64,000 nucleotides of DNA from Clostridiales bacterium (GTDB lineage: Bacteria > Bacillota > Clostridia > Christensenellales > UBA3700), in the NCBI GenBank assembly GCA_014799575.1, contig JAAVHS010000015.1, forward strand, positions 65,820 to 129,819. Direction: 5' to 3'. This document shows, piece after piece, positions 40,588 through 64,000 of the stretch. A model generated the notes under the pieces. That model was not told where the DNA came from. It was given only the letters and a program-made list of their open reading frames with translations, and searched no databases. The number at the start of each line of letters is the position of its first letter. Position 1 is the stretch's first letter. Made by a program: the position numbers and the translations under genes.

Positions 40588-40594
40588 AAAAAGA

Positions 40595-46949: not shown

Positions 46950-47022
46950 AACTACACACCTTTTACCATCAATTTCCCCTATACGTCTATTTATCAAATA
47001 AAAAAATATTCTTTTTTTTCGC

Positions 47023-47751
47023 TTACTTACTCACTTCGATAAGTTTTTTAAGCGTTATGTCTCTTATATCTTCGGAATCAAGATAATCAAAACTGCTAAT
47101 CGCAGCATAATGATTCAATTCTTTTTTGCATTTTCTAAAATAGTCATTAATACCTTTTTTCGGTCCAATAATTTCTCTAAAGTCCTGAATTGCCAAAAGA
47201 ATTCCTTTCATTCTCTTAAAATTTGCTCTATTTAACGTATCAAGTAAATCTTTCCCCAACATTTGGTTTTCAAATAAAATATTTGTTAAATGATAAGGAT
47301 CTTTGCAGTTAGGATCATAAGTCAAATGAGCCCACCACCAAAGTCTCGACAAACCATTAAAATAATAGAGCCCCATCATACCATCCCCAGGAACAAAATA
47401 CCTTTGCTCGGGACTACTATCGCTCCAACGATATCTCATATATTTACGGCACTCTTCATCCATATGGCACATATATGCCCACATGTACTTATTCGTTGCT
47501 TGTAGAGGTGTAATTTTAAAAGCTTCATACAAATTTCTGGCATTGACAAAGTCATCTTCACTTTTATCTTTAGCCATCGAGTAATAAGGACTAAATTTAT
47601 TCACTTGTTGAGAAGATATACCATACCATTCGACTCCCTTATTAAAACATGTGGGCACCCAATTATCGGTTAATAGATATTTTTCTCTATTCTCATCGAC
47701 AGAGCTTAATAGTCTATCGTATGCGTCTTCCGTAAAAAAACCTAACAACAT
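47023..47751 (-). CDS. hypothetical protein, member of GHKL cassette
   Basis: 242 aa. Conserved-looking aromatic block YYFNGLSRLWWWAHLTYD. No catalytic motif recognised. Its start overlaps the stop of the upstream gene by 1 nt. Confidence 0.7.
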   Translation of the reverse strand: MLLGFFTEDAYDRLLSSVDENREKYLLTDNWVPTCFNKGVEWYGISSQQVNKFSPYYSMAKDKSEDDFVNARNLYEAFKITPLQATNKYMWAYMCHMDEECRKYMRYRWSDSSPEQRYFVPGDGMMGLYYFNGLSRLWWWAHLTYDPNCKDPYHLTNILFENQMLGKDLLDTLNRANFKRMKGILLAIQDFREIIGPKKGINDYFRKCKKELNHYAAISSFDYLDSEDIRDITLKKLIEVSK

Positions 47752-48686: not shown

Positions 48687-48687
48687 T

Positions 48688-50685
48688 TTAAACTCCCTCT
48701 GAAAGAATTAATTTCACTCCCATTTTTTCTTTCTTTTCAAATATAATCATAAATTCTGCGGGATTATCTTTTTCTATTATCATTGGTCCCGCTTTCTTTC
48801 CATTGCAATTTACAGGCTTACCTTGATATGAAAATTTATTTATATTAAGAGTTTCCTTTTCCCCATCTTCACCCACAACAACACACTCCACAAAAAGCCG
48901 TTTGTAATCTTTTGCTGGAAATATAACCGCTTTGTATAATCCTATATTTGATTGTACTGGAAATGCTCTGCGCTTCGATAATTCTTTAATTGGTATGGTT
49001 CTATTTCCATTCCCTTCAACTACTCCCTTTTGTGTGGGTTTTGTTCCAGTTTGTACAATGGGATCTGGAGATTGCCCAGGATTCGGACCTGGCAATGGGC
49101 CTGGTCCTGGACCTGGATTAGGACCAGGTATAACATCTGGTATTGGTCCCATGTTTGATCCTTGATTGCCACCGTTATGAGACACTTCTTTTCCTTCATC
49201 TTCACGTCCCGGAACATCTGTTGACATAATTGTGTTTTTCTTAATTTTAGGTTTACCAATTTTGATTTTTACTTTAAGAATATCTTTTCCATTGCTATCT
49301 TCAGGAAGAGCGCCGTCTTCCGTATCAGCTAAGTATGCACTCATTCCAGGCGCATCTGTCGTATCACCGGCAGGACTTTCATATTGAGCCTTTAATATTC
49401 TCCAAAGTTCTTCATAAAGATCATCCAAAGCTTTTTTTGCATCATTGCGTTTTGATTTATTCGCCTCTCCCTTGATAAGTTTGTAATCCCAACGATTATG
49501 ACGCGGAGGTTCACATTCTCTCAATAGTTTTCCTAACTTCTCTCCTCTAACAATCATTATGGCTGCATAATGCTGAAACATGCGCTTAGACCCTTGCCCA
49601 ACCAACATTCCGTTAGAGCGGAAATTTGCAATAGTCCTTGCAAAAGAACTTTCAGCTTTAACATATATTTCAACTGCATCTTCTTCACCTAAAATTTCAA
49701 TTGACTTTTGATCGTCGGGAGTAGAAAAAGTTGAAAATAATTGGCGAGTAATCTCCAAATGACGATCGTTCTTAGAATATTCTTCAATAAACTCTGCGAC
49801 ACTTGTATCGTCAATACATTTCTTGTTTTGATTTTCATTCTTTATTTCTACAACGAGTCTTTTTTCGCGAATTGCAACAAAAAAATTTTTTATTACAGCT
49901 TTTGCTACATTATCTTGCCAATTGTCAGTTTCATTAAAGCCAACAATGATAACGTCTGTGCCATGTTCTTTTCTTACAAACAAATCCCTGAAATTATTAT
50001 CGTCTTCCTCGTAAATTGGCAACCATTCTTCTTTCTCATCATCATTTTTTTGATATCGTCCAATTCTTTGCGTTGGTTTACCCTCGTCATTCAAAAGAGT
50101 GGCAACTCGTCCTACGCCTACAAACGCTTTATTCTTGTTGACATCATAAGTGTTATAAAACACCATACTCAATGCAGAACAAGCAAATGGGGCATTTTTG
50201 CCAATACCAAAAGAACCTCCACTATTGTCATCGGATTTTACCGATATACCATCGGCACCAGTCAAAGCTTCCCATGGAGTATTTATGTTGTTGAGGTTAT
50301 GATTACCCAAAAGTCCTTTTGTATTATAATCACTTGCAACTAACACATTAACCTTATCCTTTCTCAATGTGTTTTCAGCTTCAGTTAAGAAACTTCCGAG
50401 TTTTGCATCAATATCTCCACCTACCGACCAAAACTCACGGCATCTTTCAAGACATTTTTTATATCCTAAAAATACGTCATACTTTTCGGTAGGAACAGTT
50501 TTTAATTCAAAAACAACCTTAACTGGTCCTTCAGCCTTATCATCGCGTGCATCCAAAGAATTTTGACAAATTTCACGTGCAAGATTATCAATTAATTCTT
50601 CGCCTTTAAATCCCTCAATGTCATTGTTCGTATATCCTTGTTTAGATCCACCAGATAACGGCGGAAATCTCCACGATATTTCCAT
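48688..50685 (-). CDS. GHKL-superfamily (MORC/Hsp90/MutL-like) ATPase with Pro/Gly-rich linker
   Basis: Start moved to ATG 50685 (AAGAGGA SD; MEISWRFPP). Bergerat-fold N box REICQNSLDA (Ex3Nx2D) and G box DDNSGGSFGIGKN. Linker GPIPDVIPGPNPGPGPGPLPGPNPGQSPDP precedes a C-terminal beta-rich domain of about 130 aa. Confidence 0.75.
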   Translation of the reverse strand: MEISWRFPPLSGGSKQGYTNNDIEGFKGEELIDNLAREICQNSLDARDDKAEGPVKVVFELKTVPTEKYDVFLGYKKCLERCREFWSVGGDIDAKLGSFLTEAENTLRKDKVNVLVASDYNTKGLLGNHNLNNINTPWEALTGADGISVKSDDNSGGSFGIGKNAPFACSALSMVFYNTYDVNKNKAFVGVGRVATLLNDEGKPTQRIGRYQKNDDEKEEWLPIYEEDDNNFRDLFVRKEHGTDVIIVGFNETDNWQDNVAKAVIKNFFVAIREKRLVVEIKNENQNKKCIDDTSVAEFIEEYSKNDRHLEITRQLFSTFSTPDDQKSIEILGEEDAVEIYVKAESSFARTIANFRSNGMLVGQGSKRMFQHYAAIMIVRGEKLGKLLRECEPPRHNRWDYKLIKGEANKSKRNDAKKALDDLYEELWRILKAQYESPAGDTTDAPGMSAYLADTEDGALPEDSNGKDILKVKIKIGKPKIKKNTIMSTDVPGREDEGKEVSHNGGNQGSNMGPIPDVIPGPNPGPGPGPLPGPNPGQSPDPIVQTGTKPTQKGVVEGNGNRTIPIKELSKRRAFPVQSNIGLYKAVIFPAKDYKRLFVECVVVGEDGEKETLNINKFSYQGKPVNCNGKKAGPMIIEKDNPAEFMIIFEKKEKMGVKLILSEGV

Positions 50686-50701
50686 AGTTAATCCTCTTAT
50701 G

Positions 50702-50920
50702 TTACAGTTTAAATTTTTCTTCATCAGAGCCTGTAGCCAAATACTTCATTTTAGCCGCTCTTAATTCTTTTTCTAATGTGTTAAAAATCTTATTAACATC
50801 TGCTTCCGTATAATCGTAATTTGCTTTATTTGAACAATTCCCCAATAATCTTAGCATGTCGATTATTTTATTGGTTCTGTTTTCTACGATTCTAACAAAT
50901 TTATCTCGTTTAGTTTCCAT
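50702..50920 (-). CDS. small hypothetical protein, first gene of GHKL cassette
   Basis: 72 aa from ATG 50920 (AGGAGA SD 9 nt upstream; METKRDKFVRIVENRTNKIIDML...). Helical. Ends 16 nt before the GHKL start. Confidence 0.6.
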   Translation of the reverse strand: METKRDKFVRIVENRTNKIIDMLRLLGNCSNKANYDYTEADVNKIFNTLEKELRAAKMKYLATGSDEEKFKL

Positions 50921-50952
50921 ATATTGCAATCTCCTAAAAATATTCTACGTAT

Positions 50953-50981
50953 ATATTACAATATCTAAACATGATTGTCAA
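50953..50981 (-). promoter_or_regulatory. sigma-A-type promoter of GHKL cassette
   Basis: On the minus strand: TTGACA (50976-50981), 17 nt, TAATAT (50953-50958). Lies in the 176-bp gap downstream of dcm. Confidence 0.55.
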
Positions 50982-51105
50982 TAGCAATTTGCAAGATTTT
51001 GAAAATGTTTTTCATATATTGCAATATTTGAAAAATGTAGTTGATTTTTAAAACAAAAAATGAACTTTTTACAGCTCATTTTGATTATAAGGTTGCCTTC
51101 GATTA

Positions 51106-52341
51106 TTAGTCTTCATCAACTAATAGATCGATAATTTTATTCGCAAACGCAATCGCCATTAATGGTGGAACCGCATTACCAACTTGTTTTACAACGTCCG
51201 ATCTATTTCCTTCGAAATAATACCAATCCGGAAAAGATTGTATTCTAGCGCCTTCTCTTGGCGTTAAAGCTCTATCCTGCTCATAATGAATGCATCGTAA
51301 ACCGGAAGGCGTAGCTAAATTGTTTGTTATTGTAGTAGATGGCTTATTTCGTTCTAGTCTCCCATACGTATTTCCATACCCTGATGTCAAGTAATATTTA
51401 CTATCAATTAATCCAGCAGCAACTTTGGCATTAAAATCGTCCTTTCCCTCACCTTCATTAACATTCTCTATTACAGTTCTAATTTTATCCCCATAAGTTC
51501 CACAAAAATGCACTGTAAGTTTATCGCAATCTCTACGCATAAGTTTTTGATAATCAGTCATAGGCGGCTTATCGTATTCCTCTATTGTTTGCCCTTCGCC
51601 AACCTCCGGCAAATCCGAAATTGCTTGATATACTGAAATAGTTTGCTTACCGTCACCTTTCGGATAATCCCACTCTATATTCAAGCCATCTCTTACGCCT
51701 ATAATGAAAACCCTTTCCCTGATTTGTGGAACTCCAAAATCCGTTGCTAGCATAGTTTTGGTACAAATCTTATACCCAATATCGTTAAACTTGCGTTGTA
51801 ACACGTCAATTACAAGATCACCATAATGATCCACTACAGGTTCTAATCGAGTAAATTCTTTGTCTCCTCTATGCTTTATAACTTCCTTTGTGACAACTTG
51901 TCCATTTTTATCAGTTTTATAAAAGATTTCTCTCATAGACAGAATACCTTTTACATTTTCAAATAAAAACATTTTCGGTTTAATCTTCTCGAGTAATCTT
52001 AAGTACTGATGCGACAATTTTGCTCTATCGTCATATTTTCTTTGACCAACGGTACTAAACGATTGACAAGGTGGACCGCCAATTATCACATCCACTTCCT
52101 CGCCTTTTAGCATTTCGTCAATTTTTTCATCTGTGATTGCACAAATATCACCCTCAATCATTGGGATATCACTGCCGTAGTTTTTCCTAAATGCCGCCGC
52201 CGCTTTTGGAGCAAATTCATTTGCAAACACAAATTGAACGTTATTTCTTTTAACAAAACGTTTGTTTATTAAGTCATAATAAAATCCAAAAGTTAAACCA
52301 CCAACTCCGGAAAACAAATCTACAATTTTACACTTTTTCAT
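51106..52341 (-). CDS. dcm: DNA (cytosine-5)-methyltransferase
   Basis: Motif I DLFSGVGGLTFGF, motif IV GGPPCQSFS, motif VI FENV, motif VIII QIRERVFIIG, motif X GNAVPP; 411 aa. Confidence 0.93.
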   Translation of the reverse strand: MKKCKIVDLFSGVGGLTFGFYYDLINKRFVKRNNVQFVFANEFAPKAAAAFRKNYGSDIPMIEGDICAITDEKIDEMLKGEEVDVIIGGPPCQSFSTVGQRKYDDRAKLSHQYLRLLEKIKPKMFLFENVKGILSMREIFYKTDKNGQVVTKEVIKHRGDKEFTRLEPVVDHYGDLVIDVLQRKFNDIGYKICTKTMLATDFGVPQIRERVFIIGVRDGLNIEWDYPKGDGKQTISVYQAISDLPEVGEGQTIEEYDKPPMTDYQKLMRRDCDKLTVHFCGTYGDKIRTVIENVNEGEGKDDFNAKVAAGLIDSKYYLTSGYGNTYGRLERNKPSTTITNNLATPSGLRCIHYEQDRALTPREGARIQSFPDWYYFEGNRSDVVKQVGNAVPPLMAIAFANKIIDLLVDED

Positions 52342-52527: not shown

Positions 52528-52920
52528 TTATTTATTAGGTCGCAACCTGTTTCTAAATAAACGAGACAATGTATTAACATTTAGTTCGCCGTCTTTGATT
52601 GACAGCACTTTTGTGCCATTCTCAACAAGAAAGCCTATCTCTTCCGTTATTTCTATTGATGAGTTGCCAAGCACAGCGAGTTCCATAATAAGTAATTCAT
52701 CAAATTCGTGGTATTTGGCTTGCAATCTTAAATTTTTATATGTGAGTGCGCCCATTGTTCCACTCTCCATATAAGTACGAACTACCGCAAGTCCGTTTGT
52801 TTTGACATAACAATCTAGTATATCATTTTGCTCTTGCAACTCTGAGTTATCACCCTTTGATGAACGGCAATACAATATTGCCCTATTCTTGCTTTCTTTA
52901 TTTAACACTTGATCATTCAT
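52528..52920 (-). CDS. serine recombinase (resolvase) catalytic-domain-only protein, possibly a remnant
   Basis: Start at ATG 52920 (GGGGGGAAGAG SD). RAILYCRSSKGDNSELQEQ resembles the resolvase active-site Ser block. There is no C-terminal HTH, and the usual DRLGR block reads LAVLGN. Confidence 0.55.
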   Translation of the reverse strand: MNDQVLNKESKNRAILYCRSSKGDNSELQEQNDILDCYVKTNGLAVVRTYMESGTMGALTYKNLRLQAKYHEFDELLIMELAVLGNSSIEITEEIGFLVENGTKVLSIKDGELNVNTLSRLFRNRLRPNK

Positions 52921-53092
52921 ATAATCTCTTCCCCCCTTATAAAATAAAAAAGAGTTTGACTGCCTCTGCAAATCAAACCCTCTCTGTTAACCGACGGATT
53001 AAATGATTTCCTATTCAACTACAATTATCCTAACATATTTATTCCGGTTTGTAAATTAAAATAGAAAAATTTTTATAATCATATAATTAATT

Positions 53093-54889
53093 CTATTTAT
53101 CTATCTCCCCAAGCACAACTCCACACTTTGGACATATACTTTTCAATTTCCAGCCTGTTACTTCTTCATCGAATCTAAACGATGAAACTGCATAAGGTCC
53201 CATAATTGTTTCATATTTCATCAACTGAAAATAATACGGTTTTTCTTTTACTGCATCAGTAATCGTTTTTTCATTTAACAATAAAGAATCGTCCACATAT
53301 TTTATCCACAATAAATTTTCCTCTTTACAGTTTGAACAGCTGGTCATTGATATTCTATGACCACATTCGTGGCAGTCTATATAGTCAGTTCCTTTGCGTA
53401 CTTTAGTTGAGCCACACAATGGACAGGTCGATGGCATAGTGCGGAAATCTTTATTGCGCAATATATGCGAATTGATAATTCTTTGTATATGTAAGAAATT
53501 GTATCGCAAATCTAATGGCGATAGGATTTGTATCCCCGTCTTATAATAAGACTTGTTTTCAATATCCTTCTCGTCCTTTGCATAATTATCGCCTATATTA
53601 AACAGCCTTCTATAAATCGTCTCGCCGAAATCATTTGATGCGCTACATGCGTTTATATCCAAAGATACAAAACAATACTTGCTCGTAACTTGGCTTCGTT
53701 TTTCTCTCTTAGACAGTGCGCTTATTATGTCGGTCGTTCTATCGTCTACTTGACTCCTGCTCATTCCTTCAAAATTGGTATAATCAGTATATATTTCAAA
53801 TACGTCATACTTATTCGCTTTCTCATCTATCAACAACGATAACACTACTTTATGTTCTTTGGGCACAAGACTTATTCTTATCTGCGTATCGCCCTTTATC
53901 CAAATCATATCGCCATTTATCGTAAGAACGTCATCGTCATAATTTATGATTGGATTATTGCGTTCTTCATAACCGCTGTTGTGCATAGATGCTATAACGT
54001 TGAAAACAACATAGGCATAATAATAGTTAGAATATTGCTTTTCCTCTTCTTCGTCAAAAGAATAATCTTCTTCTTGATGTACTGAATTCAAATACTCCCA
54101 CAACTTGTAGCAACGATTGTAATTTGCATCGAACATTATGATATTTGTTTTTTCGATAGGACTTTTAACCTTACGACACTTTCTCAACTTGCTGTAAAAA
54201 TCCGAATATCTTAAGTTAACGATTTTTCTTTCCAGAGCCCTGACTTCATCAAGTTCATCACGCATATGCGCAGTATATCCAGCAGCAACGCTTGAATTAT
54301 TATCTTTTGATAAAACTTTCAGCAATCTATCGCTGTTGGCCTGCATTCTGATGTAGTTATTCCTAGAATTGTCTAATACGCTCAAAATATTATTATCTTC
54401 GACTTGTCCATATAGATTTTCAAGTTTTATACGTCGAGCAGCCACGCTAAGTATTATTCTATCGATTAACGTTTTTACGAATCTATTTTCGTACAAATCA
54501 ATCGTTTCTTCGTTGATATCGGAAACAATATTCTTTGGTTTTACAGTCAAGAACGTACGCGCATACCAATCGTTACTATTCCTACCCAAATGCAGAATAG
54601 CGTTACTATTAATTCTTTTAGCCGTTTCAACTGGGACTTTCTCTTCGATTGACTTTATGAACGAACGCGGTTTCTCTACTATGCGTTGTATGTAAGGAAT
54701 CGCTTTTTTTATCTCCTTCACACAATCCTCATCAATAACCTTAGTTCCCTCTTCGTCATTAAATTGTAAGAGAATCTTCTTGGTAGAAAAGCCGTCTATT
54801 AATTCATCGATTCTTGCGCCATTAGGATAATACTCATAAAAGTCATCGAATACCCTATTAAACAAAAACTTTTCTTCTTCTAATCGCAT
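53093..54889 (-). CDS. McrC-like (DUF2357-type) partner protein with C-terminal zinc ribbons
   Basis: 598 aa, starting 3 nt after the McrB-like gene. DLYENRFVKTLIDRI block typical of DUF2357/McrC relatives. C-terminal CPLCGS..CHECGH, CSNC and CPKCG motifs. The nuclease motif is not clearly identifiable by eye. Confidence 0.6.
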   Translation of the reverse strand: MRLEEEKFLFNRVFDDFYEYYPNGARIDELIDGFSTKKILLQFNDEEGTKVIDEDCVKEIKKAIPYIQRIVEKPRSFIKSIEEKVPVETAKRINSNAILHLGRNSNDWYARTFLTVKPKNIVSDINEETIDLYENRFVKTLIDRIILSVAARRIKLENLYGQVEDNNILSVLDNSRNNYIRMQANSDRLLKVLSKDNNSSVAAGYTAHMRDELDEVRALERKIVNLRYSDFYSKLRKCRKVKSPIEKTNIIMFDANYNRCYKLWEYLNSVHQEEDYSFDEEEEKQYSNYYYAYVVFNVIASMHNSGYEERNNPIINYDDDVLTINGDMIWIKGDTQIRISLVPKEHKVVLSLLIDEKANKYDVFEIYTDYTNFEGMSRSQVDDRTTDIISALSKREKRSQVTSKYCFVSLDINACSASNDFGETIYRRLFNIGDNYAKDEKDIENKSYYKTGIQILSPLDLRYNFLHIQRIINSHILRNKDFRTMPSTCPLCGSTKVRKGTDYIDCHECGHRISMTSCSNCKEENLLWIKYVDDSLLLNEKTITDAVKEKPYYFQLMKYETIMGPYAVSSFRFDEEVTGWKLKSICPKCGVVLGEIDK

Positions 54890-54892
54890 ACC

Positions 54893-57106
54893 CTAAATCC
54901 TATCAATCATATTTTGAATGGCTTTTCTAGTCATTTTGAATTTATCATCTTTTTCCGATTTTCTCAAATCAGATAAAAACTCTTCCAATCCTTTCTTGGT
55001 AGATTCATCATAGAAGCCTTGAAGTTTGCGCAACACTTTCGTTACGAAAATTGTGTCAATTGCTTCTTCAATTTTACCACCACAAGTCACGTATGCCGGA
55101 ACAAACTTATAAATCTGTTTGCTAATACGATTGCCGAAGCTGATTTCAAAGTAAGTTTGCATACGCTCATCCAACCAATCCACATGGCCTTTTATTTCTT
55201 TTTTCATTTCCGGAGACAAACTGCTTGCATTTGTAAGCAAAACGTTGAGTTCCGCATAACTAACACCCCTTGGATAACTTGATTTATCCACTGAAAACTC
55301 TTCCTCTCTTTTATCGAACTCAAGAACTATTGCTCTATCGTACACTTTATCAGAAATGGCAAAAGTAGAATCGTCTTTATTTGCAGTACCTATAAACCAC
55401 GTATTATCTCCTATGGACAAATTGCCTTCAACAATATACTCCGGACAAACACCTCTTACGTCGCGTGATATCAAATTGACTTTACGATTTTCAGGTTTCT
55501 CTTCTTCCAATGCCGACAAGAAATCCGCGAAATAATACTCTATTCGAGACAAGTTCATTTCATCTAGCATGATTAAGTGCACGTTATTGCGATCTCTTGT
55601 TGCCCTATACAACGCCTCCAAGAACTTTGTTTCCTTATAGCGTTTTTCAAAATCATTATAGAAACCTAGTAAATCATTCCGATCTTTCCACGATGACTGC
55701 ACTTCGATTCTATCAGTTATAGACATCATATATTCGGCAAAGGCGTTTGGTAGACTTGATTTACCGGTACCGCTCATACCCTGCAAGATTATTATACGCG
55801 CTGCCGCCAATCCTGCAAAAAACGTCCTTATACTTTCCATCGAATAATATAGTGGATTATCATTCCTAGATGCTAGATAATTTCTAAAATCTTCGCATAT
55901 CTGTTTTAACGATCTACCAGTTCTTGGATAATCCGCAAGATTCTTCTCATCATCAATCGCGCTCAACGAGGCAAATACGTTGTCTTGACGACTATTATAA
56001 TTCTCCTGAATTCTATCCAATTCTCTTTGCAACTCAACGCGCTGCAATTCAAGAACCCTAATGAATCTTCTAGAATTCTCCAAATCATTGCGATATATAT
56101 CCAACTCAGCAAGTTTCCTATCCGTTTCTATTTTTTCTATCTTCAAATTTTTAAGTTCTTCAGCTATTTGTGAATTTTCATCTGCCGTCGTTCTCAAACG
56201 TACAATTTCATCATCTGCTGGCACTTTTGTCAATCTATCTCGAAGTTCCATATTTTCTTTTTCGAGACGATTACGCTCGTCAATCAACGCCGTTGGATTT
56301 TGACCGAATCTTTGAATTTGTCTATAATATTCTTCGTTTTCCGCTTTGCATTTTTTGTACGTTTCATCGAGAATTTGATTTTTCTGCTCCAATGAATCTA
56401 TTTTATGTTCGAGTTCCATCACGCGTTGTTTTCTTGCATCACTTTTCTCTAACTCTTGCATATAATAATCTTTATCGTCATTGCTTGAATTTAGTTCTCG
56501 TTCTTTCTTTTTAAGCTCCTTTACAAGTTCATCTTTTTCCTGTTCAAGCGACGCTATCGCAGAATTAAAACCTTTAATTTGCTCATCTACGTCTTTTAGC
56601 ACGTCCGTCTTATATGATTTCTTTTGGTTTTCCAACTCCAAAGAATCCTTTGTAAATTGTTCCATTTTGCTTGCTAATTCTTCATACTGCAAATCTAGAT
56701 TCTCTGTTTTTTGCTCTAATTCTTTTTGTTTAGCCTCCACGTCTTCTTTGACCAAGTGCGCTTGAGAAATAATTTTATCAGCCGCTATCTTGGCATCAGC
56801 TTCAGCTTCTTCTTTTACTTCTTTCTTATATTGACTCTGTACTTCGCCAATAGATTTCTCTACTTCTTTGTTTGCTTTCTCTATTATTTTTTTCTTTTCA
56901 GCCTCTCCTTCGTTAATTAAACGTTGCTTTTCTTCCTCGCCTTCTTGAATGAGTCTCTCCTTTTCCTTTTGGCCTTGTTCTCTTAATGCCTCTCTTTCCT
57001 CGGATGTCAACTCTACTTCTGGCTTAACTACCTTTACAGTTTCTTGCTTTACTGTCGGTTGAGGACGATTATTATTACTCTTATTGCCTTTATTTTTCTT
57101 TGCCAT
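54893..57106 (-). CDS. McrB-family AAA+ GTPase with ~400-aa N-terminal coiled coil
   Basis: Walker A GMSGTGKSS, Walker B/McrB block HLIMLDEMNLSRIEYYFADFLSALEE, FIGTANKDDSTFAISDKVYDRAIVLEF. The N-terminal K/E/Q/L heptad region runs from about aa 20 to 400. Confidence 0.8.
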   Translation of the reverse strand: MAKKNKGNKSNNNRPQPTVKQETVKVVKPEVELTSEEREALREQGQKEKERLIQEGEEEKQRLINEGEAEKKKIIEKANKEVEKSIGEVQSQYKKEVKEEAEADAKIAADKIISQAHLVKEDVEAKQKELEQKTENLDLQYEELASKMEQFTKDSLELENQKKSYKTDVLKDVDEQIKGFNSAIASLEQEKDELVKELKKKERELNSSNDDKDYYMQELEKSDARKQRVMELEHKIDSLEQKNQILDETYKKCKAENEEYYRQIQRFGQNPTALIDERNRLEKENMELRDRLTKVPADDEIVRLRTTADENSQIAEELKNLKIEKIETDRKLAELDIYRNDLENSRRFIRVLELQRVELQRELDRIQENYNSRQDNVFASLSAIDDEKNLADYPRTGRSLKQICEDFRNYLASRNDNPLYYSMESIRTFFAGLAAARIIILQGMSGTGKSSLPNAFAEYMMSITDRIEVQSSWKDRNDLLGFYNDFEKRYKETKFLEALYRATRDRNNVHLIMLDEMNLSRIEYYFADFLSALEEEKPENRKVNLISRDVRGVCPEYIVEGNLSIGDNTWFIGTANKDDSTFAISDKVYDRAIVLEFDKREEEFSVDKSSYPRGVSYAELNVLLTNASSLSPEMKKEIKGHVDWLDERMQTYFEISFGNRISKQIYKFVPAYVTCGGKIEEAIDTIFVTKVLRKLQGFYDESTKKGLEEFLSDLRKSEKDDKFKMTRKAIQNMIDRI

Positions 57107-57124
57107 TTGTATACTTCTCCTTTG

Positions 57125-58597
57125 TTATATAAGTTCTATAAATACTCTTGTTACGTTAAATAGTTTATCTACGTCAGCTTCATCGTAATAATACTTAACG
57201 GCTTGCTTATAATGACTGCCATTGTTTCTACTTTCATATAAATCAAACGCGTCTTCCGCGAATTCAAAATATAATTTCGAGTTATTACGCATCTTGGAAT
57301 TAGCCAAGAATAAACTTGCCAAATCCGCTTTAAAATGTTCCCATCCTCTTTGCCAATGTTTAAATATATCGTCTTTAAAAAATGGGCGGCCATTCACTCC
57401 TAGTTGTTTGCAAATATTTAATACTTCACTACAAAATTGTTTGTAATCAAAGTATTGCCTTCCTTGCAAATCCTTTCTATCTACAAACTGATGCATCAAG
57501 CACTCCAAATATCGTCCCAGTGAGTTATAATAACTTATATGTTTTGACGCAAATTCCTTATCTATCTCTATTAATAGCTTCTTCAAATCTTCATATTGCG
57601 TCGGTAGATGCTCGACCAATCTATAAACGTCACCAAATTTAGTTAACTGTTCGGCAACACCTTTTCGATAAATAAAGGTTTGCGTATCAGCCACTTTGGA
57701 TTCATGTTTAGCAATATTATGCTCCAACTCAAGTTTTTGCAAATATTTATCCAATTCTTCACTGACACTGCGAGCTTTTGCTAAGCGTTTATTCATCCAT
57801 TTCAACGTCACATTCGGGTCAAACGGTGTGTCTATAAACAAATTCTCTCCGTCCGTAAATACTGAGACTTCTAATTTGTATTCACATCTTACATTGTCTA
57901 AAAAATGTGCGCTAAAATTGTTAGTTGGATTTTTATCCTTCTCGGAGAAATCTTCATCAAAACTTGCAGTTTGTGGCATAAAATCAACTTCGGCATCTTC
58001 ATCGTAAAATTCCTCAGTTTCTTCTACTACATCATTATTATTAACGTTTATAGAACTCAGTCTATTAAACGTCAAATAAGCTTTTTTGATTTCATCTTGC
58101 GTAGGCTTATCCTTAATTCGCAATTTTAATTCAAGTTTCTCGCCTGAACTTGCATCTTTTAAATACTCATTATCTGTAAAGCATGGAACAATACCACCGC
58201 AAATTCCATCCTGAAAGACCCTTTGGACCGACACCTGAGAACTAAACAAATCCTCATATGTATCTAAAAATCCAAACGTCTCTTTGCTTAGATATGCATT
58301 GCTTCCACGTTGAACTTCATCTCTAACGATAAATTCTCTTTCTGCTTTAGAAATGATATTGTCAATAGTAACGTCGTCCAATAACGATGAAAACTTTTGC
58401 TTTATTATACGACGAACTTCGTCCTTTACCTCTTTAATATAACTTCTAGCATCCAATTTGCGTTCATCGTTTTGCTGAACTACTAACGACAAATACAGCC
58501 ACTCAAACAAATCTGTCCTAATTTGTTGTGGCATTAGCACGTCGTATCTTACGAACGGCCAAATGAAACTGCCAATGTATTTCCTACTTTCTTGCAT
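57125..58597 (-). CDS. hypothetical protein embedded in kinase-helicase-McrBC operon
   Basis: Start moved to ATG 58597 (AAGGAG SD 7 nt upstream; MQESRKYIGSFIWPF); 490 aa. No motif recognised. Confidence 0.7.
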   Translation of the reverse strand: MQESRKYIGSFIWPFVRYDVLMPQQIRTDLFEWLYLSLVVQQNDERKLDARSYIKEVKDEVRRIIKQKFSSLLDDVTIDNIISKAEREFIVRDEVQRGSNAYLSKETFGFLDTYEDLFSSQVSVQRVFQDGICGGIVPCFTDNEYLKDASSGEKLELKLRIKDKPTQDEIKKAYLTFNRLSSINVNNNDVVEETEEFYDEDAEVDFMPQTASFDEDFSEKDKNPTNNFSAHFLDNVRCEYKLEVSVFTDGENLFIDTPFDPNVTLKWMNKRLAKARSVSEELDKYLQKLELEHNIAKHESKVADTQTFIYRKGVAEQLTKFGDVYRLVEHLPTQYEDLKKLLIEIDKEFASKHISYYNSLGRYLECLMHQFVDRKDLQGRQYFDYKQFCSEVLNICKQLGVNGRPFFKDDIFKHWQRGWEHFKADLASLFLANSKMRNNSKLYFEFAEDAFDLYESRNNGSHYKQAVKYYYDEADVDKLFNVTRVFIELI

Positions 58598-58608
58598 ATT
58601 ATTCTCCT

Positions 58609-61600
58609 TTATTTTACCTTTGTTGCGCATCGGACGTAATTCTTAAATACGTCGTTTCTTGTCATAGTCTCCGCATCGCCGATTACGACTAACAACCTTC
58701 TTGCTCTTGATAATGCAACGTTGATTCTGCTCTTTGAGTAATGAATGAATCCAAGGCTCTTTTCAATATCTATCTCGCGATTACTTCTTGTCGTGGATAA
58801 TAAAACTATGTCAAACTCTTTTCCTTGATATGAGTCAACCGTATTGCATTCGATTTTTCTCAAATCCTCGTCGGGAAATTTGTCTTTTAAAAGTTTATTT
58901 ATCAATTCCACTTGCCCCTTATAGAAAGACATTATGCCTATTTTATAATCTCGACTTGAATTTTTGCGAACGATATCTTGCACAATCTCGATTACTTTAT
59001 CCGCTTCCGCCGGACGACTTAATTTATATGACGATTTCTCTTCCATTCCCTCAGTTATAGGCACGTCTTGCCATACCATGTTTTCTCCAGAGAAAATGTT
59101 AAAATCATTGATTTTTGATATCGTTGTTTGCCCGTTTTCAATACCGCCTTCTATTCTTTCTATTCCGTTTTCATCAATGATTTTTCTCTCATAAAATTGT
59201 TCACTGATAAATCCGCCAATCTTTGGATGCATACGATGTTGCTCTTGGATACGTATATGTCTACGAAACTTTAATTTGCGCTCATTCCAAGATTTTTCAA
59301 GGCTATCATACAATACTTGAAAAATGGATTTCGTCAATAGCGTTTCATCAAAGTTGCTATACTTTTCCTTTTCATTTTTGAATCTACGCACATAGTCGGT
59401 CTCTACGTAATGCGGCAACTGCATTTGATCTCCTACCATAATAACTCTAGTTCCCATAAGAACCGGAATCATAATATCCAAAGGATTAGCTCGCGCAGCC
59501 TCATCTATAATAACGTAATCATATTTATTGCCACTCAAATCAATCATACTGCTACTACGATCTGCTTGCGCGCAAGTGCTACCTATTACGTTAGTATATT
59601 TCATAATGATATCTCTAACGTTATCAGCGTCGCTCATTTTATACTTTAACGCTTCTATAATATCGTAAAAATCTTTCTTGCGATATTTAGCTACTTGACG
59701 AATTCTATTTAATAGAGAGTCGAATAGTTCTTTATACGTTGTTATCGCAAGCTCAAATTCATCTTTTTGCGGATCTATCTCACTCCTAATACTATCAACG
59801 TAGTTAAGATATTTTTTAAACGTACTCTCATCTCTTGTAGCAAACAACTCGTCTTTAAGCGCTTGATCAATTAATAGATAATTGTACCCGTATCGCTTGA
59901 TAACTCTTTGCAATTCATCCAACTGATATTCGCCGTCGTCTTCATAGAACGCATCTATATCCAAACGCTGTGAATTTAATTTTCGTTTGATAAAATCCAT
60001 TCCCTCGCGCTCATCTTCGTATGATACCCCACTATTACGAAGTTTTGCCTCAATTTGCGCAACTATATCTTTCACGTCATCCCACAGCCCCATGGTCATT
60101 ACGTAGCGAGTAATATTCTCTATCTTTTCTGCAATGATTTCTTGTGAATACTTTTTATCCACTATAGTCTGAACATCGAATATCAATTTTGTCAAGATAT
60201 CAGAAAATCTATCTTTTTGAGTCCGTTCATTTAGAATCCTATTGCATAAATCGAGAAAGCGTCCTTGGAAATCCTGAATATTCCTACGCATTTTCTCTTC
60301 ATTTTCAGCCCTTTCGTCTCTTGAATACTTTTCGCTTGTTACAAAAGGTGGTATTGAATTGCCGGATAGTTTGTCCACAACGTTATACAAAGCTTCGTGT
60401 TGCTCACTACTGACAAGTATCTTATAGTTCTTATTTCCCATTGCCCCTAGTCTTGCGATAATACCATTTATAAGTGTTGTCTTTCCCGTGCCCGGAGGTC
60501 CTTGTATCAATGCTATATCCGGAGTATTCAACGCTATAAACATCGCCTGTCTAAAATTCTCTTTCAATTCCACGTCGGTTCTACCAAACATTTTTTTAAG
60601 AACGTCATTTGTGATAGGTTCTACGTCAGATCCGGTCTGACTATCTTCCTCGCCTGCACTCAATCGCATTATCATATTTGACGTACTATTACTTTTTCTT
60701 TCTATTACCGACATGACGCTTTGGCGACGGCGTTCTTCTGTCTTTATATTTCTATCAGAAAGGATAACGTAACCAACCTCAGGTATAGCGACAGCTATCT
60801 CCGGATAATTAAATATTAATTCATTAGTATCAAACGACTCGTTGAGCGCTTTGCCTAATCTTATAGTTGCGCCCCTTGTTTTTTCTCTTTGCTCTATAAT
60901 TTCCTCTATATTCTTAAAACTATTTCCTGTTTCTGAAAATACTATATCGTACTCTTGCGAAGAAGCCTTTACTCTATCGCCAAACAATGGAAAGCTATCA
61001 ACGTTCTTTTCAAATTGCAATACTATTTCTTCACCTTCGTTTCGATATGACTTGTACTTTGCGTATCCCAATTCAACGACTTCATCGTGAAACACTTTAC
61101 TTTCAAAACTAATAAATTCTTGCCATGCTTTAAACAACTCGTTTGTATGAACTTCTGCAAGCGGTGCGTCATGTCCCTTTGTTTTTATTGCCTCGTCGAA
61201 AGTTACGAACTTAACGTGTCCGTATATTTGTATTATTCTATCTATACTATTATTAACTCTAATCTTGGTGAGCTTTTTGATCCTGTAAATTCCGGGCCTC
61301 TCTTTCTCAACGTTAGCGCGATATCTATTTCCATACATTTGGAAAGTCCTTATTGCGCTACCGCCTTGGTACTCAGCAATGAATACGCTTTTATTATTCA
61401 TAAACTCGTCTTGAAGAAATTTTATTTCATCGCCGCCAACTATTTCGCCCAATTCTTCAAATTGATTTTTAACCATTCTTTCCAAATAAAAGTGCATAGT
61501 TTCGCTTTCTAGGTCTATGCGTCGCACCCTAGAAAAAACGTAAAGCAATACTACCAAATGATTATTTACAACGTTGCATTCATAAATCGATTCGTTTTCC

Positions 61601-61797
61601 TCATCAGGAAAATCACTGAAATTTCGCACAACGAAATCCGATTCATCGTCAAGACTATTTAATTTATATTCTTTGCCATCGACAACGGCAAACAACGCCC
61701 CGCCTTTTTTCCGCAGTTTCTTAATTTGGTCAAGATTTACTTTTTCATCTATTGAAAAGTTGCCGGTTTGGCAAATATCTATTAAAAACTTATTCAT
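58609..61797 (-). CDS. Upf1/DNA2-like SF1 helicase (AAA_11/AAA_12 type) with ~420-aa unknown N-terminal region
   Basis: Walker A IQGPPGTGKTT, Walker B YVIIDEAARANP, VDSYQGKEFDIVLLS, INVALSRARRLLVVIGD; 1062 aa. The ATGA overlap with the PP2C gene indicates coupling. Confidence 0.85.
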   Translation of the reverse strand: MNKFLIDICQTGNFSIDEKVNLDQIKKLRKKGGALFAVVDGKEYKLNSLDDESDFVVRNFSDFPDEENESIYECNVVNNHLVVLLYVFSRVRRIDLESETMHFYLERMVKNQFEELGEIVGGDEIKFLQDEFMNNKSVFIAEYQGGSAIRTFQMYGNRYRANVEKERPGIYRIKKLTKIRVNNSIDRIIQIYGHVKFVTFDEAIKTKGHDAPLAEVHTNELFKAWQEFISFESKVFHDEVVELGYAKYKSYRNEGEEIVLQFEKNVDSFPLFGDRVKASSQEYDIVFSETGNSFKNIEEIIEQREKTRGATIRLGKALNESFDTNELIFNYPEIAVAIPEVGYVILSDRNIKTEERRRQSVMSVIERKSNSTSNMIMRLSAGEEDSQTGSDVEPITNDVLKKMFGRTDVELKENFRQAMFIALNTPDIALIQGPPGTGKTTLINGIIARLGAMGNKNYKILVSSEQHEALYNVVDKLSGNSIPPFVTSEKYSRDERAENEEKMRRNIQDFQGRFLDLCNRILNERTQKDRFSDILTKLIFDVQTIVDKKYSQEIIAEKIENITRYVMTMGLWDDVKDIVAQIEAKLRNSGVSYEDEREGMDFIKRKLNSQRLDIDAFYEDDGEYQLDELQRVIKRYGYNYLLIDQALKDELFATRDESTFKKYLNYVDSIRSEIDPQKDEFELAITTYKELFDSLLNRIRQVAKYRKKDFYDIIEALKYKMSDADNVRDIIMKYTNVIGSTCAQADRSSSMIDLSGNKYDYVIIDEAARANPLDIMIPVLMGTRVIMVGDQMQLPHYVETDYVRRFKNEKEKYSNFDETLLTKSIFQVLYDSLEKSWNERKLKFRRHIRIQEQHRMHPKIGGFISEQFYERKIIDENGIERIEGGIENGQTTISKINDFNIFSGENMVWQDVPITEGMEEKSSYKLSRPAEADKVIEIVQDIVRKNSSRDYKIGIMSFYKGQVELINKLLKDKFPDEDLRKIECNTVDSYQGKEFDIVLLSTTRSNREIDIEKSLGFIHYSKSRINVALSRARRLLVVIGDAETMTRNDVFKNYVRCATKVK

Positions 61798-62492
61798 TTA
61801 ATCCTCCCACAAAGAATGATCGTCTTATCGTCTTGATTTGTACTAATTGGCCAGTTTTCTATCATATGCTCCAAATCGTCTAAGAACTTTCTAGAATCAT
61901 TGTTAATTTCTAATAAACACTGCCCAAGAAAACTCTCAATTTGATCACTTGCCATATCCTCAGAAAATCCATCCGTAGCCAAAGACAGCAACTGAATTTC
62001 ATTATAAGGAATCCTTGCTATATGAAACTTATCTTCATATCCTACCGACATTACGCTATCGGTTTGATTTGAAAAGTTATTGCTAGTTTTAATCTCGAAA
62101 AACTTATTATCGACTATCCCTAATATCCAACCGTCGCCTATTCCACCGCATACAATCTCTTTGTCATCTACTACGATAAACTTAAAAGTCGTATCGCACG
62201 ATATCGGCTTTACTTGCAACTGACTAGCCCAAGCCTTTTTTATTATTATAGGAAATTCGTCGATAATACCATTGTTTACGATTATATCTCTGGCAACTCT
62301 ACATACTGTTTGCGATCCTATTTCAGAGTTAATTGCCGATCCCAAGCCATCCGCTGACAGACATATAATCTTTTCACCGTTTGCTTCTATGCAAAACGAA
62401 TCTTGATTTAATTCCTTCCCAGCTCCTTTTACCGAACAGCCTAAAATCGTATACTTACAACCGTTTAATTCTGCATTCAATATTTCTTTCAT
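61794..62492 (-). CDS. PP2C-family Ser/Thr protein phosphatase
   Basis: GAGKELNQDSF, LSADGLGSAINSEIGSQ, LATDGFSEDM and QDDKTIILCG blocks; 232 aa. Confidence 0.8.
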   Translation of the reverse strand: MKEILNAELNGCKYTILGCSVKGAGKELNQDSFCIEANGEKIICLSADGLGSAINSEIGSQTVCRVARDIIVNNGIIDEFPIIIKKAWASQLQVKPISCDTTFKFIVVDDKEIVCGGIGDGWILGIVDNKFFEIKTSNNFSNQTDSVMSVGYEDKFHIARIPYNEIQLLSLATDGFSEDMASDQIESFLGQCLLEINNDSRKFLDDLEHMIENWPISTNQDDKTIILCGRIK

Positions 62493-62493
62493 A

Positions 62494-64000
62494 TTATTTT
62501 CTCGATAACATTCCTATAGTTTCAATTTTCCCAACACGCGATTGCACAACGTCTAATAATATCGCGAATTTATCAAACGAGAACTCTTTTGCCTTTGTCA
62601 AATCGTCAATTGGAAACTTTGTTCCAGGCGATTTCCTGTCAATTAAGTTACATGATGGTATAATCGACTTATCAACTATTTGTACTCTAACAGTGCCTGA
62701 TATTTCGTCCATGAGTTGAATTTTAACAAAAGGGGTACTCCTTTTAGCCGTTCTCTCAAAATGCCTTAACTTTAAGTATTTCGGCTTATCCTCTTCCAAA
62801 ATCGCAGTTGATATCGGGATAAATCTATATCTCTCGCCAAATTCGGATAATGGTTCGCAATTGAGAATATTACTAATCAATTTGTTTCTATCAGCCTCAT
62901 TATATCCATTGAATATTTCTAGAACCACCCTGTTGCCAGTTTCTGCATCGCAATCCCAACAATGATTATCTGATTGAGGCGAATATACTAATTCAGCTCC
63001 GCAATTTTTGCACGTAGCAAGCATGTCCTGCGCCTCATCAAAAGCTTCGACAAACTCTATTGCAGTAGGTCTTAGATATGGATTGTTCTTTCCATCCACA
63101 AACGTCCTATAAAACAGATCTTTAATCTTGGGCGTAACAATTTTGCATTCGTCGAACAATTTCACAAAAGGTGTGCTTGATGCGTTGCTGCCATTCTTGT
63201 GAAGAACGTAATCCGTCTTACACTGCAATGCTGCCGACTCTTCTTCAGCTGTACCGTCTTCCACTGCGTCTCCAACAAACGGGTGCTGCAAGGTTAATAA
63301 TTGAAATACAATTATCGCCGCAGAGAAAACGTCACTTTCCGCAGACAACGCCCCACTTTGTGGCAATAGATTTTTATCAAACTCGCCATTAGCTAGTTTG
63401 CTGTTAACGTCGGCTAGTCCCAAATATATTTCCGGAGCCATATAACCTTGAGTGCCTACCACACTGAGGTAATTATCTCTTTTCCGACGCATATTATCCG
63501 TGTCGATAAAAACAAGACTGTTCTCCCTTTTGCCGACCATAACGTTATTCGGGGATAAGTCAGTAAACAATAGACCAGAGATATGGATTTGTTCAAGCGA
63601 GTTAAATAGATTGGATGCTATTTGCAAGCGCTTTTTAAGTTTGTAATTATCCTTGTACCAATCAACAAATTCTTCGCCCATTGGAAAAGTTATGTATTTC
63701 TTTAGACTATCACAATTATTTGCTCGATACATTATATATCCAACGTCGTCTCCTTCAAGGAGCGCCATAGGATATGCCATTTTCCCTTTAAGTACTTCGT
63801 TCGCCCCAACAGCGTTTTTAAGCCATTGCAGATGCTCTCGTAATTCTCGCTTAGCACTACTGCCCAATTTCGCAGTGTTGATTAACTTCACGACAAAATT
63901 CGGCATGTTATTTACAGCGAATACAGAGCCTTCTAAGCCTCCGCCTATCTTTTCACTAAGTTCATACTCATGTCCGTTGATAAGGACTTTATCTCCCGTA
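62494..64000 (-). CDS. Ser/Thr protein kinase with zinc ribbon and C-terminal extra domain (5' end beyond window)
   Basis: The frame stays open upstream of the track's ATG (63906) to the window edge. Codons 63907-63999 give GDKVLINGHEYELSEKIGGGLEGSVFAVNN, the Gly-rich loop, followed by VVKLI (the catalytic Lys). Also present: DLSPNNVMV, IDTDN, GTQGYMAPE and CKNCG..CWDC. Confidence 0.85.
   Translation of the reverse strand, partial: TGDKVLINGHEYELSEKIGGGLEGSVFAVNNMPNFVVKLINTAKLGSSAKRELREHLQWLKNAVGANEVLKGKMAYPMALLEGDDVGYIMYRANNCDSLKKYITFPMGEEFVDWYKDNYKLKKRLQIASNLFNSLEQIHISGLLFTDLSPNNVMVGKRENSLVFIDTDNMRRKRDNYLSVVGTQGYMAPEIYLGLADVNSKLANGEFDKNLLPQSGALSAESDVFSAAIIVFQLLTLQHPFVGDAVEDGTAEEESAALQCKTDYVLHKNGSNASSTPFVKLFDECKIVTPKIKDLFYRTFVDGKNNPYLRPTAIEFVEAFDEAQDMLATCKNCGAELVYSPQSDNHCWDCDAETGNRVVLEIFNGYNEADRNKLISNILNCEPLSEFGERYRFIPISTAILEEDKPKYLKLRHFERTAKRSTPFVKIQLMDEISGTVRVQIVDKSIIPSCNLIDRKSPGTKFPIDDLTKAKEFSFDKFAILLDVVQSRVGKIETIGMLSRK

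Follow-up and report, generated by a model that had tools for sequence, protein, structure and literature searches.

CoCoNuT systems were described computationally in 2024 by Bell, Sahakyan, Makarova, Wolf and Koonin (eLife; PMC11090510). Type I systems lack a helicase and consist of CnuB, which bears a CSD-like OB fold, and CnuC, joined by CnuA in Type I-B; a UPF1-like helicase, CnuH, and a downstream effector, CnuE, are found in Types II and III; and Types II and III-A are usually accompanied by a TerY-P triad, a frequent but non-core addition comprising a vWA protein, a PP2C phosphatase and a zinc-ribbon serine/threonine kinase (STK) (PMC11090510). Terrabacterial Type II systems are mentioned in the same paper. 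A locus of this kind lies at the end of a 64,000-nucleotide (nt) stretch of DNA from a Clostridiales bacterium (contig JAAVHS010000015.1, assembly GCA_014799575.1), referred to below as the window. We read this locus as probably a Type II CoCoNuT of eight genes that includes a full TerY-P module; its downstream six-eighths lie in the window. It is a divergent gut-Clostridia member of the system described in 2024, and no new system.

Six tightly packed minus-strand genes occupy positions 53093-64000 of the window in the open reading frame (ORF) listing. They encode a TerY-P Ser/Thr kinase (62494..64000; full length 504 amino acids [aa]; Pfam Pkinase, 3e-16), a 232-aa TerY-P PP2C-family phosphatase (61794..62492; PP2C_2, 4.5e-21), the 1062-aa UPF1-like superfamily 1 (SF1) helicase CnuH (58609..61797; AAA_11, 1.5e-29; AAA_12, 6.5e-41), the 490-aa predicted effector CnuE (57125..58597; Rx4H motif and profile alignment), the 737-aa CnuB with a coiled coil and a McrB-type GTPase domain (54893..57106; profile match to McrB and heptads), and the 598-aa CnuC with DUF2357 and zinc ribbons (53093..54889; DUF2357, 9.4e-12). 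Junctions calculated from the ORF coordinates are those given in an initial annotation made from the sequence: a 1-nt gap, a 4-nt overlap of the PP2C gene with the start of cnuH, and gaps of 11, 18 and 3 nt, the last two at cnuE/cnuB and cnuB/cnuC. The motifs quoted in that annotation were also found, namely IGGGLEGSVF, VVKLI, DLSPNNVMV and GTQGYMAPE in the kinase, GMSGTGKSS and LDEMNLSRIEYYFADFLSALE in the 737-aa protein, and DLYENRFVK in the 598-aa protein. The cnuE ORF extends from 57125 to 58630 (501 aa), and 490 aa are obtained from the second ATG at 58597. The 501-aa reading from the first ATG was dropped and the second start preferred, because most of the 25 homologues are 485-505 aa long and align from that Met. 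Promoter and terminator scans gave counts within approximately 2 standard deviations of shuffled sequences and are thus uninformative on operon boundaries, which no called terminator marks.

An exact-sequence look-up of the PP2C protein returned a public contig of 4.6 kb (L001) that covers the final 3455 nt of the window at 100% identity and continues for another 1178 nt. The initial annotation had described a six-gene operon: its six ORFs stand, but its total does not, as L001 adds two genes upstream (L001:3-1171; orthologues at L002:3199-4585, L003:3204-4593 and L004:3173-4594) and brings the number to at least eight. A vWA/TerY gene, which that annotation had proposed to look for beyond position 64000, is one of the two. 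It encodes a 234-aa protein with a DxSGS MIDAS motif (Pfam VWA, 8.6e-11) and overlaps the start of the kinase gene. The gene preceding it, with full-length orthologues of 226-238 aa and N-terminal helix-turn-helix (HTH) matches below threshold, leads the operon in all six loci of the gut-Clostridia clade. The order of transcription is HTH, vWA (TerY-like), Ser/Thr kinase, PP2C, CnuH, CnuE, CnuB and CnuC, with the HTH and vWA genes and the first 3 codons of the kinase gene falling past position 64000. Since the vWA gene on L001 joins those for the kinase and PP2C, the TerY-P triad is complete.

The eight genes are inherited together as one cassette. Five more independent loci (L002/L006, L003, L004/L005, L008 and L010), obtained from look-ups of three CnuE homologues and from a scan of species-representative genomes, have the same eight genes in unchanged order. 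For each gene, identity to the window protein declines from L002 (54-77%) to L003 (29-65%), and the flanks of the loci are unrelated (for example, NAD synthase and PLDc_2; pyruvate phosphate dikinase and a UvrD-like helicase; Eco57I and FeoAB). Conservation of this gene order within different flanks excludes chance adjacency of the kinase/PP2C and McrBC-like pairs, an outcome that the initial annotation had named as damaging to its proposal; the two pairs also occur together on plasmids of Rhodoferax and Deinococcus. The clade is rare: a CnuE pattern scan confirmed relatives in 5 of 185,579 species-representative genomes, all of them metagenome-assembled genomes (MAGs) of uncultured gut Bacillota, and 1.84 billion proteins searched with a CnuE profile yielded 86 cluster representatives. 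One relative is in a GenBank MAG in which the annotation reads only "hypothetical" and "DUF2357 domain-containing".

A tblastn search of plasmids with the GTPase domain yielded two annotated reference loci. On Rhodoferax antarcticus plasmid NZ_CP019242 (39.7-51.5 kb), genes for a sigma-54 regulator, VWA, PP2C and kinase are followed by those for an AAA protein of 1109 aa, a hypothetical protein of 489 aa, an AAA ATPase of 788 aa and a DUF2357 protein of 608 aa; apart from the regulator, the set on Deinococcus sp. AJ005 p96k is the same. Both of these plasmid relatives, which were inspected for context (38-41% GTPase identity), belong to canonical Type II operons. Like them, the locus described here has vWA, PP2C, a zinc-ribbon STK, CnuH (~1060-1110 aa), CnuE (~490 aa), CnuB and CnuC, with similar gene sizes and tight or overlapping junctions, and six of the seven proteins are homologous by BLASTP (CnuE by profile). 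BLASTP identities to the Rhodoferax and Deinococcus references are 34-38% for vWA, 26-29% for STK, 24-26% for PP2C, 29% over ~700 aa for CnuH, 34-38% for CnuB and 23-24% over DUF2357 for CnuC. The references and the clade have the unusual kinase motifs DLSPxN and IDxDN in common, and the catalytic motifs of every enzyme (kinase, phosphatase, vWA MIDAS, helicase and GTPase) are conserved in all eight operons.

The clade, whose host range is uncultured gut Bacillota, also differs from canonical Type II operons. STK precedes PP2C, whereas Rhodoferax, Deinococcus and P. aeruginosa CF040 have vWA-PP2C-STK; the first gene encodes a ~230-aa HTH protein, in the place of the sigma-54 regulator of Rhodoferax; CnuC is ~50 N-terminal residues shorter than in Type II, with helices instead of an Ig-like sandwich; and CnuE has diverged past BLAST detection from its canonical counterpart. 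These four differences are sub-branch variations and do not constitute a new architecture.

The initial annotation described the kinase as having a zinc ribbon and an extra C-terminal domain, and both are present: the CxxC pair of the ribbon (CKNC...CWDC, 62950-63012) is conserved and is followed by a domain of ~150 aa. The Gly loop, Lys41, DLSPNN, IDTDN, APE and CxxC...CxxC of the kinase are conserved in eight operons including the Type II references, as are motifs NQD, DGLGS, GDG, TDG and DDKT of the PP2C protein. No Pfam match was found in the C-terminal 168 aa of the kinase. The ~150 residues past the zinc ribbon (window 62497-63000, minus strand) are conserved in the clade, again with no Pfam match, and the Rhodoferax kinase likewise runs ~150 aa beyond the aligned kinase core. 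TerY-P triads (Anantharaman et al. 2012) and stand-alone TerY-P-type defence modules (Gao et al. 2020, as cited in PMC11090510) resemble the module described here in having a vWA MIDAS, PP2C and a kinase with an appendage of nucleic-acid-binding type. In contrast to the stand-alone modules, the kinase here carries a zinc ribbon and the ~150-aa domain instead of an OB fold, and the triad is embedded in a larger operon.

The identification of CnuH as an Upf1/DNA2-like SF1 helicase in the initial annotation agrees with its best PDB matches, which are Sen1, SMUBP-2, UPF1, NAM7 and DNA2. The helicase core is encoded by 58612-60561 and the N-terminal ~412 aa by 60562-61797. Walker A (aa 433-440) and Walker B (aa 763-770) are ~320 aa apart and so enclose a large insertion; this spacing is consistent with the helical insertion described for the type, and in the Pfam AAA_11 match 383 residues are spread over ~250 profile positions. 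The helicase motifs are conserved across eight operons, and CnuH is 29% identical to the Rhodoferax Type II CnuH over 718 aa (BLASTP). Type II CnuH proteins are predicted to have an SmpB-like OB fold and a RelE-like (RTL) domain at the N-terminus (PMC11090510). No Pfam match was obtained for the corresponding N-terminal region here.

CnuH is also related to the helicase of the Mokosh defence system. Mokosh type I comprises an STK-helicase fusion, MkoA, and a PLD nuclease, MkoB; it protects E. coli, and defence is lost on mutating either the helicase ATP-binding site or the PLD active site (Millman et al. 2022; bioRxiv 10.1101/2022.05.11.491447). In PADLOC, CnuH matches MkoA (5.9e-102) over aa 106-1048, which includes part of the N-terminal region, and the window kinase matches the STK part of the MkoA models. 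The Rhodoferax operon behaves in the same manner, with MkoA (1.1e-91) and PDC-M26A (8.6e-36) matched by CnuH and CnuB, respectively, and nothing for CnuC. In addition, the Rhodoferax CnuE matches the N-terminal ~190 residues of MkoB (6.5e-7), as do two distant CnuE relatives, making 3 of the 12 members of one of our alignments (best 1.7e-7); the window CnuE has no match to the MkoB model. PADLOC-DB 2.0 contains no model that detects CnuC, and CnuE is detected only in some Proteobacterial members via the MkoB N-terminus. Mokosh and the locus described here follow the same logic, in which a kinase and a UPF1-like helicase are combined with an effector protein encoded downstream. They differ in that PP2C and vWA genes accompany the kinase here, which has a gene of its own, a HEPN-like domain stands in place of PLD in the effector, and a McrB/McrC-like pair is added. 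No operon protein matches a PLD domain in Pfam. Mokosh type I was therefore rejected as the identity of the locus despite the homologous helicase, as the kinase is a separate gene and a PLD nuclease, part of Mokosh as defined, is lacking. Judged by homology, the kinase-helicase-wHTH effector core is best described as a predicted split, HEPN-armed Mokosh relative joined to a nuclease-dead McrBC-like pair.

The 490-aa protein, for which the initial annotation could find no place in the CoCoNuT scheme, is identified here as the predicted CnuE, the winged helix-turn-helix (wHTH)-HEPN effector of Type II systems, on the basis of an invariant Rx4H motif and a profile match to Type II CnuE proteins. 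In the latter, an elongated wHTH and a coiled region are described, along with a single HEPN domain bearing an RxxxxH motif (PMC11090510). The window protein begins with a winged-helix region (~58193-58597) and ends in an all-helical HEPN-like domain (~57128-57640), with a disordered acidic linker and a helical stretch between them; this layout agrees with the published one, though no single test reaches a curated threshold. The Rx4H motif, RNNGSH, is at aa 457-462 (57212-57229), and R457 and H462 are invariant in 26 CnuE sequences (query and 25 homologues). The AlphaFold 2 (AF2) model (mean pLDDT 76.5; 84-95 over most of aa 330-460) has a beta-hairpin and helix at the N-terminus, the disordered acidic linker and a confident all-helical C-terminal domain. 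Top Foldseek matches of this model are mostly winged-helix proteins, together with the archaeal HEPN protein 2hsb, and all are non-significant; the absence of significant whole-model matches for both CnuE and CnuC is explained by their multi-domain structure.

In database searches, CnuE itself has no match in Pfam, PADLOC or NCBIfam, a search of the PDB with its profile found nothing meaningful, and its similarity to the Rhodoferax and Deinococcus CnuE proteins is undetectable by BLAST. One family member matches HEPN_Apea (0.0038), and in distant relatives found by profile, the expected ends match wHTH-PRTase_assc (2.6e-5) and either HEPN_RiboL-PSP or HEPN_Apea (~0.03-0.04). The motifs WPxYxW, [FY][RQ]DA[IV]xGxx[IL]P, SPF and a C-terminal RNxxxH are common to distant representatives and the two plasmid CnuE proteins when these are aligned jointly.

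CnuB consists of a basic N-terminal tail, a coiled coil (aa 31-395; 55922-57016) and a GTPase domain (aa 396-737; 54896-55921) with Walker A GMSGTGKS at 55757-55780, Walker B LDEMN at 55553-55567 and signature GTANKDDS at 55367-55390. Its placement in the McrB family by the initial annotation was borne out: a profile of the C-terminal domain built from 20 homologues finds nothing in the PDB other than chains of E. coli McrB (2.8e-8 to 6.1e-8), and the ~170-residue alignment to them brings Walker A, Walker B and the Asn signature into register. This required the profile, as a single-sequence phmmer search of the PDB found only a coiled-coil fragment. The coiled coil that had been proposed for 54893-57106 was supported by a heptad z score of 6.6 against shuffled sequences for aa 31-395, in which 52% of residues are charged or Gln and 2.4% are Pro or Gly; the GTPase half has no heptad periodicity (z = 0.4) by this measure, which is a crude in-house score rather than a calibrated predictor. 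In Type II systems the coiled coil alone precedes an NxD-type McrB GTPase, with NxD usually followed by D or E (PMC11090510). The signature is N-x-D-D in 118 of the 120 nearest CnuB homologues listed and N-K-D-E in one, with the first Asp present in 119 of 120. A Pfam search of CnuB for a CSD or YTH domain gave coiled-coil-type matches only. The GTPase domain is 38% identical to that of the Rhodoferax Type II CnuB, and CnuB matches PADLOC model PDC-M26A (5.2e-40).

The nearest out-group GTPases, at ~45% identity, are 555-604 aa long (L011:10001-11815 and L012:10001-12978). One is in a two-gene McrB/DUF2357 pair behind a WYL regulator and the other in a long operon with an ABC-type ATPase and unannotated proteins; these are further NxD-clade McrBC variants in gut Bacillota.

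For CnuC, the DUF2357/McrC-like assignment made in the initial annotation is supported by a Pfam match above cut-off (9.4e-12) and by hhalign against the Rhodoferax CnuC (probability 98.2, E = 3.7e-14), in which the N-terminus is offset by ~53 aa: the DUF2357 alignment starts at aa 55 in the window protein and at aa 108 in the Rhodoferax protein. The AF2 model (pLDDT 80.4, pTM 0.80) has a helical N-terminus, the DUF2357 bundle (~53990-54727) with a long insertion helix of 45 residues, an alpha/beta nuclease-like domain (~53450-53977) and beta-rich zinc ribbons (53123-53425). The ribbon motifs are CPLC (489-492), CHEC (506-509), CSNC (518-521) and CPKC (586-589), and all eight Cys are invariant in 32 homologues. 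Type II CnuC proteins are described as having an Ig-like N-terminus, DUF2357, an inactivated PD-(D/E)xK domain and a zinc ribbon in which CPxC occurs two to three times (PMC11090510); the zinc-ribbon tail is thus an expected feature, and not one outside the CoCoNuT scheme as had been supposed. Among the 32 homologues, aa 300-480 contain no conserved D...(D/E)xK motif: the acidic candidates D355, D362 and D411 are present in 20, 25 and 15 of 32, respectively, with no conserved lysine partner. Card1, MspJI, Cap4 and XisH are among the non-significant Foldseek matches, and the modelled alpha/beta domain is suggestive of a nuclease fold. The nuclease domain of CnuC therefore appears from its sequence to have been kept but catalytically inactivated. 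As CnuC lacks a conserved nuclease motif, the CnuBC pair has no effector of its own.

In comparison with E. coli McrBC (PDB 6hz4 and 6ut6), CnuB has the same Walker A, Walker B and asparagine signature, and CnuC is likewise a partner with the McrC N-terminal DUF2357 domain. In contrast, CnuB has a coiled coil instead of a DNA-reader domain and an N-x-D-D/E signature, and CnuC has zinc ribbons and no conserved PD-(D/E)xK motif. Canonical McrBC Type IV restriction was rejected for the absence of a reader domain on CnuB and of a conserved nuclease motif in CnuC.

The initial annotation had recognized a CoCoNuT joined to a TerY-P module, which agrees with the architecture and with the vWA gene on L001, but had assigned it to Type I. 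That assignment fails, as CnuH and CnuE are present and CnuB has no CSD; the presence of a helicase excludes Type I by the published definition (PMC11090510). In Type III-A, CnuC is fused to Hsp70-like NBD/SBD domains and HEAT repeats and has no zinc ribbon, and CnuE has two HEPN domains (PMC11090510). This type was also ruled out: the 598-aa CnuC has zinc ribbons and no Hsp70 match, and CnuE has one conserved Rx4H motif. On sequence grounds, it is very likely that the locus is a Type II CoCoNuT.

Several points weigh against this interpretation. Placement in Type II is by architecture and homology, and not by GTPase phylogeny. The NKDD string of CnuB fits NxxD as well as NxD-D and is aligned by HMMER, ungapped, with McrB NTAD, so that the string alone is not decisive for NxD. 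The N-terminus of CnuH is collinear with those of the Rhodoferax and Deinococcus proteins but only weakly similar (BLASTP E = 2.4e-6), and hhalign of these N-termini against the Type II references is not significant (E = 0.0086). Residues 1-75 of CnuC are helical in the AF2 model and do not form an Ig-like sandwich; such a sandwich is described for CnuC of Types I, II, III-B and III-C, and is not a classification criterion (PMC11090510). For CnuE, hhalign of the profile with the Rhodoferax protein as a single sequence gives no alignment beyond a 25-residue motif, QDAIxGxxxPxF (E = 5.7e-4, probability 30%). The window CnuE family matches the alignment that holds the Rhodoferax and Deinococcus CnuE proteins over 431 columns (probability 99.7, E = 1.5e-25; RNxxxH motifs of window and reference proteins aligned), but this match relies on intermediates recruited by the query profile, so that the E-value overstates its independence and the evidence is strong but not independent. 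The HEPN assignment combines the invariant Rx4H, the helical structure and sub-threshold profile matches: for the window CnuE no model of Pfam, PADLOC or NCBIfam reaches threshold and no Foldseek match is significant. Finally, the locus is known here from sequence and models alone, and we found no mechanistic study of any CoCoNuT in the literature.

The GC content of the window falls from 41-46% to 28-39% at ~34 kb, directly after a tRNA-Ser(TGA) gene (33786-33874). The ~30 kb downstream of this tRNA gene, which include the operon, look like a tRNA-associated defence island continuing past position 64000, in which the defence candidates and an integrase lie at 30-37% GC; no att repeat of the tRNA-Ser 3' end was found inside the window. 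In the very low-GC part, plus-strand genes at 34052-40650 encode a UvrD-like helicase with a C-terminal PD-(D/E)xK domain (weak GajB matches), a DUF5677 protein and an 875-aa HNH and STAND-type NTPase protein, and are followed by a minus-strand gene for a YpsA SLOG protein; all are of defence type. In mid-island, a 550-aa ORF (40856-42508, minus strand) has tyrosine-recombinase-like C-terminal motifs, as read from the sequence. In an intergenic region beside this ORF (43109-43592), imperfect direct repeats in two families of 56-58 nt, with spacings of 84 and ~257 nt, may mark a junction of two islands or a regulatory or att-like region. A gene pair at 43654-46136 (minus strand) with no Pfam annotation matches PADLOC candidate PDC-M46 (B, 4.5e-115; A, 5.5e-73), and the larger protein also matches Lamassu LmuB models. 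Next is a co-directional minus-strand cluster (46542-52341) of a Vsr-like endonuclease gene (46542-46997), PDC-M33C/B/A (47023-50724; PDC-M33A, 1.3e-125; PDC-M33C contains DUF6339) and a Dcm-type cytosine methyltransferase gene (51106-52341), which is possibly a methylation-linked candidate defence system. Directly downstream of cnuC, the sole match of a 147-aa ORF (52528-52971, minus strand) is to a resolvase N-terminal domain (2.8e-7); the ORF probably represents a serine recombinase that has been truncated, left by mobile-element activity at the operon boundary.

It is quite likely that the locus functions in defence. The initial annotation stated that CoCoNuTs lack experimental characterization, which is outdated: a P. 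aeruginosa "CoCoNut Type II" carried in pHERD20T is among the systems reported to give PAO1 resistance to at least 1 of 15 phages (PMC12735699). A mechanism can be modelled on Bell et al. 2024 and on homology to Mokosh, from which we infer that the proteins form a complex, along with its RNA target, its trigger and the part played by phosphorylation. CnuH, as an ATP-driven UPF1-like helicase, and CnuE, as a wHTH-HEPN RNase, would form a Mokosh-like helicase-effector pair that loads on phage-derived or aberrant RNA or RNA-protein complexes. The CnuB GTPase ring, with its ~365-aa coiled coil, and the nuclease-dead zinc-ribbon CnuC would act as a sensing or scaffolding motor linked to CnuH and CnuE by coiled-coil contacts, and the vWA/kinase/PP2C triad would set the activation threshold through reversible phosphorylation. 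Once activated, the HEPN domain of CnuE would cleave RNA, and either phage transcripts would be restricted or translation would be shut down (abortive infection). This domain is the best-supported candidate for an effector RNase, as it has the only conserved nuclease-type motif in the operon, and we lean slightly towards HEPN-mediated RNA cleavage as the effector step.

The operon could also be read as two uncoupled neighbours, a Mokosh-like module made up of the kinase, PP2C, the MkoA-like helicase and a partner protein, and a separate McrBC-type Type IV restriction enzyme. PADLOC splits it in this way, with MkoA for the helicase (5.9e-102) and candidate PDC-M26A for the GTPase; DefenseFinder lists "Mokosh (no nuclease)", "Mokosh" and "Type IV RM (no nuclease)" at the equivalent P. 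aeruginosa CF040 locus (PMC12191111); and relatives of the GTPase at ~45% identity occur as two-gene McrB/DUF2357 pairs. We consider this reading very unlikely, as in five further loci the eight genes keep their order while diverging in parallel between different flanks, and they are found together across phyla, the cnuE-cnuB-cnuC junctions are of 18 and 3 nt, CnuC has no conserved nuclease motif, and no PLD nuclease is present. The tool output is itself accounted for: because PADLOC 2.0 sees only MkoA and PDC-M26A, Type II loci are reported as incomplete Mokosh plus a nuclease-less Type IV system, and Mokosh kinship together with a nuclease-dead McrBC pair explains the DefenseFinder calls at CF040.

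A conventional modification-dependent, DNA-targeting Type IV restriction system, in which CnuBC translocates, CnuC cuts and the other genes regulate, is highly improbable. CnuB carries a coiled coil and no modified-base reader domain, D355, D362 and D411 of CnuC are not conserved and have no lysine partner, and the only conserved nuclease-type motif of the operon is the HEPN Rx4H; these observations outweigh the restriction of the GTPase's PDB relatives to E. coli McrB, the DUF2357 domain of CnuC and its non-significant matches to the PD-(D/E)xK folds Card1, MspJI, Cap4 and XisH. The Dcm methyltransferase and Vsr encoded nearby, which might be taken to favour such a system, belong to the neighbouring PDC-M33 cluster. 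The remaining alternative is a module for housekeeping or stress-related RNA surveillance, ribosome rescue or metal stress that is gated by TerY-P and is not anti-phage. TerY-P triads were first tied to tellurite resistance and proposed to be metal-sensing switches (PMC11090510), Type II CnuH has a predicted SmpB-like domain (PMC11090510), and UPF1-family helicases act in RNA surveillance. A very low probability is nevertheless assigned to this explanation, given a sporadic distribution (5 of 185,579 genomes; 86 cluster representatives in 1.84 billion proteins), chromosomal neighbours that differ at every locus, the position in a low-GC island rich in defence candidates beside a tRNA gene and an integrase, and the reported protection of P. 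aeruginosa by a Type II system (PMC12735699).

CoCoNuTs are among the largest predicted defence families without a worked-out mechanism, and RNA restriction via a repurposed McrBC motor has been proposed for them. Taken as a Type II CoCoNuT, the locus described here is a compact, complete and clearly bounded example from Bacillota. With all of its enzymatic motifs intact and the McrC nuclease degenerate, it gives sharper form to the prediction of the HEPN protein as the only effector, and the homology of its core to the experimentally validated Mokosh system offers a concrete experimental starting point. In a family that has barely been tested by experiment, it is not a surprise but a clean candidate for mechanistic work. 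A more speculative idea, which we regard as doubtful, is that the clade is a distinct, streamlined Type II sub-type, with an HTH leader, a CnuC lacking the Ig-like domain and a CnuE unseen by defence-finder models, in which activation is wired differently. If so, activation might occur, for example, by transcriptional derepression combined with a phospho-switch and not by cyclic-nucleotide sensing, and the clade would provide a compact, eight-gene Gram-positive model for a nuclease-dead McrBC motor coupled to a helicase-HEPN RNase.

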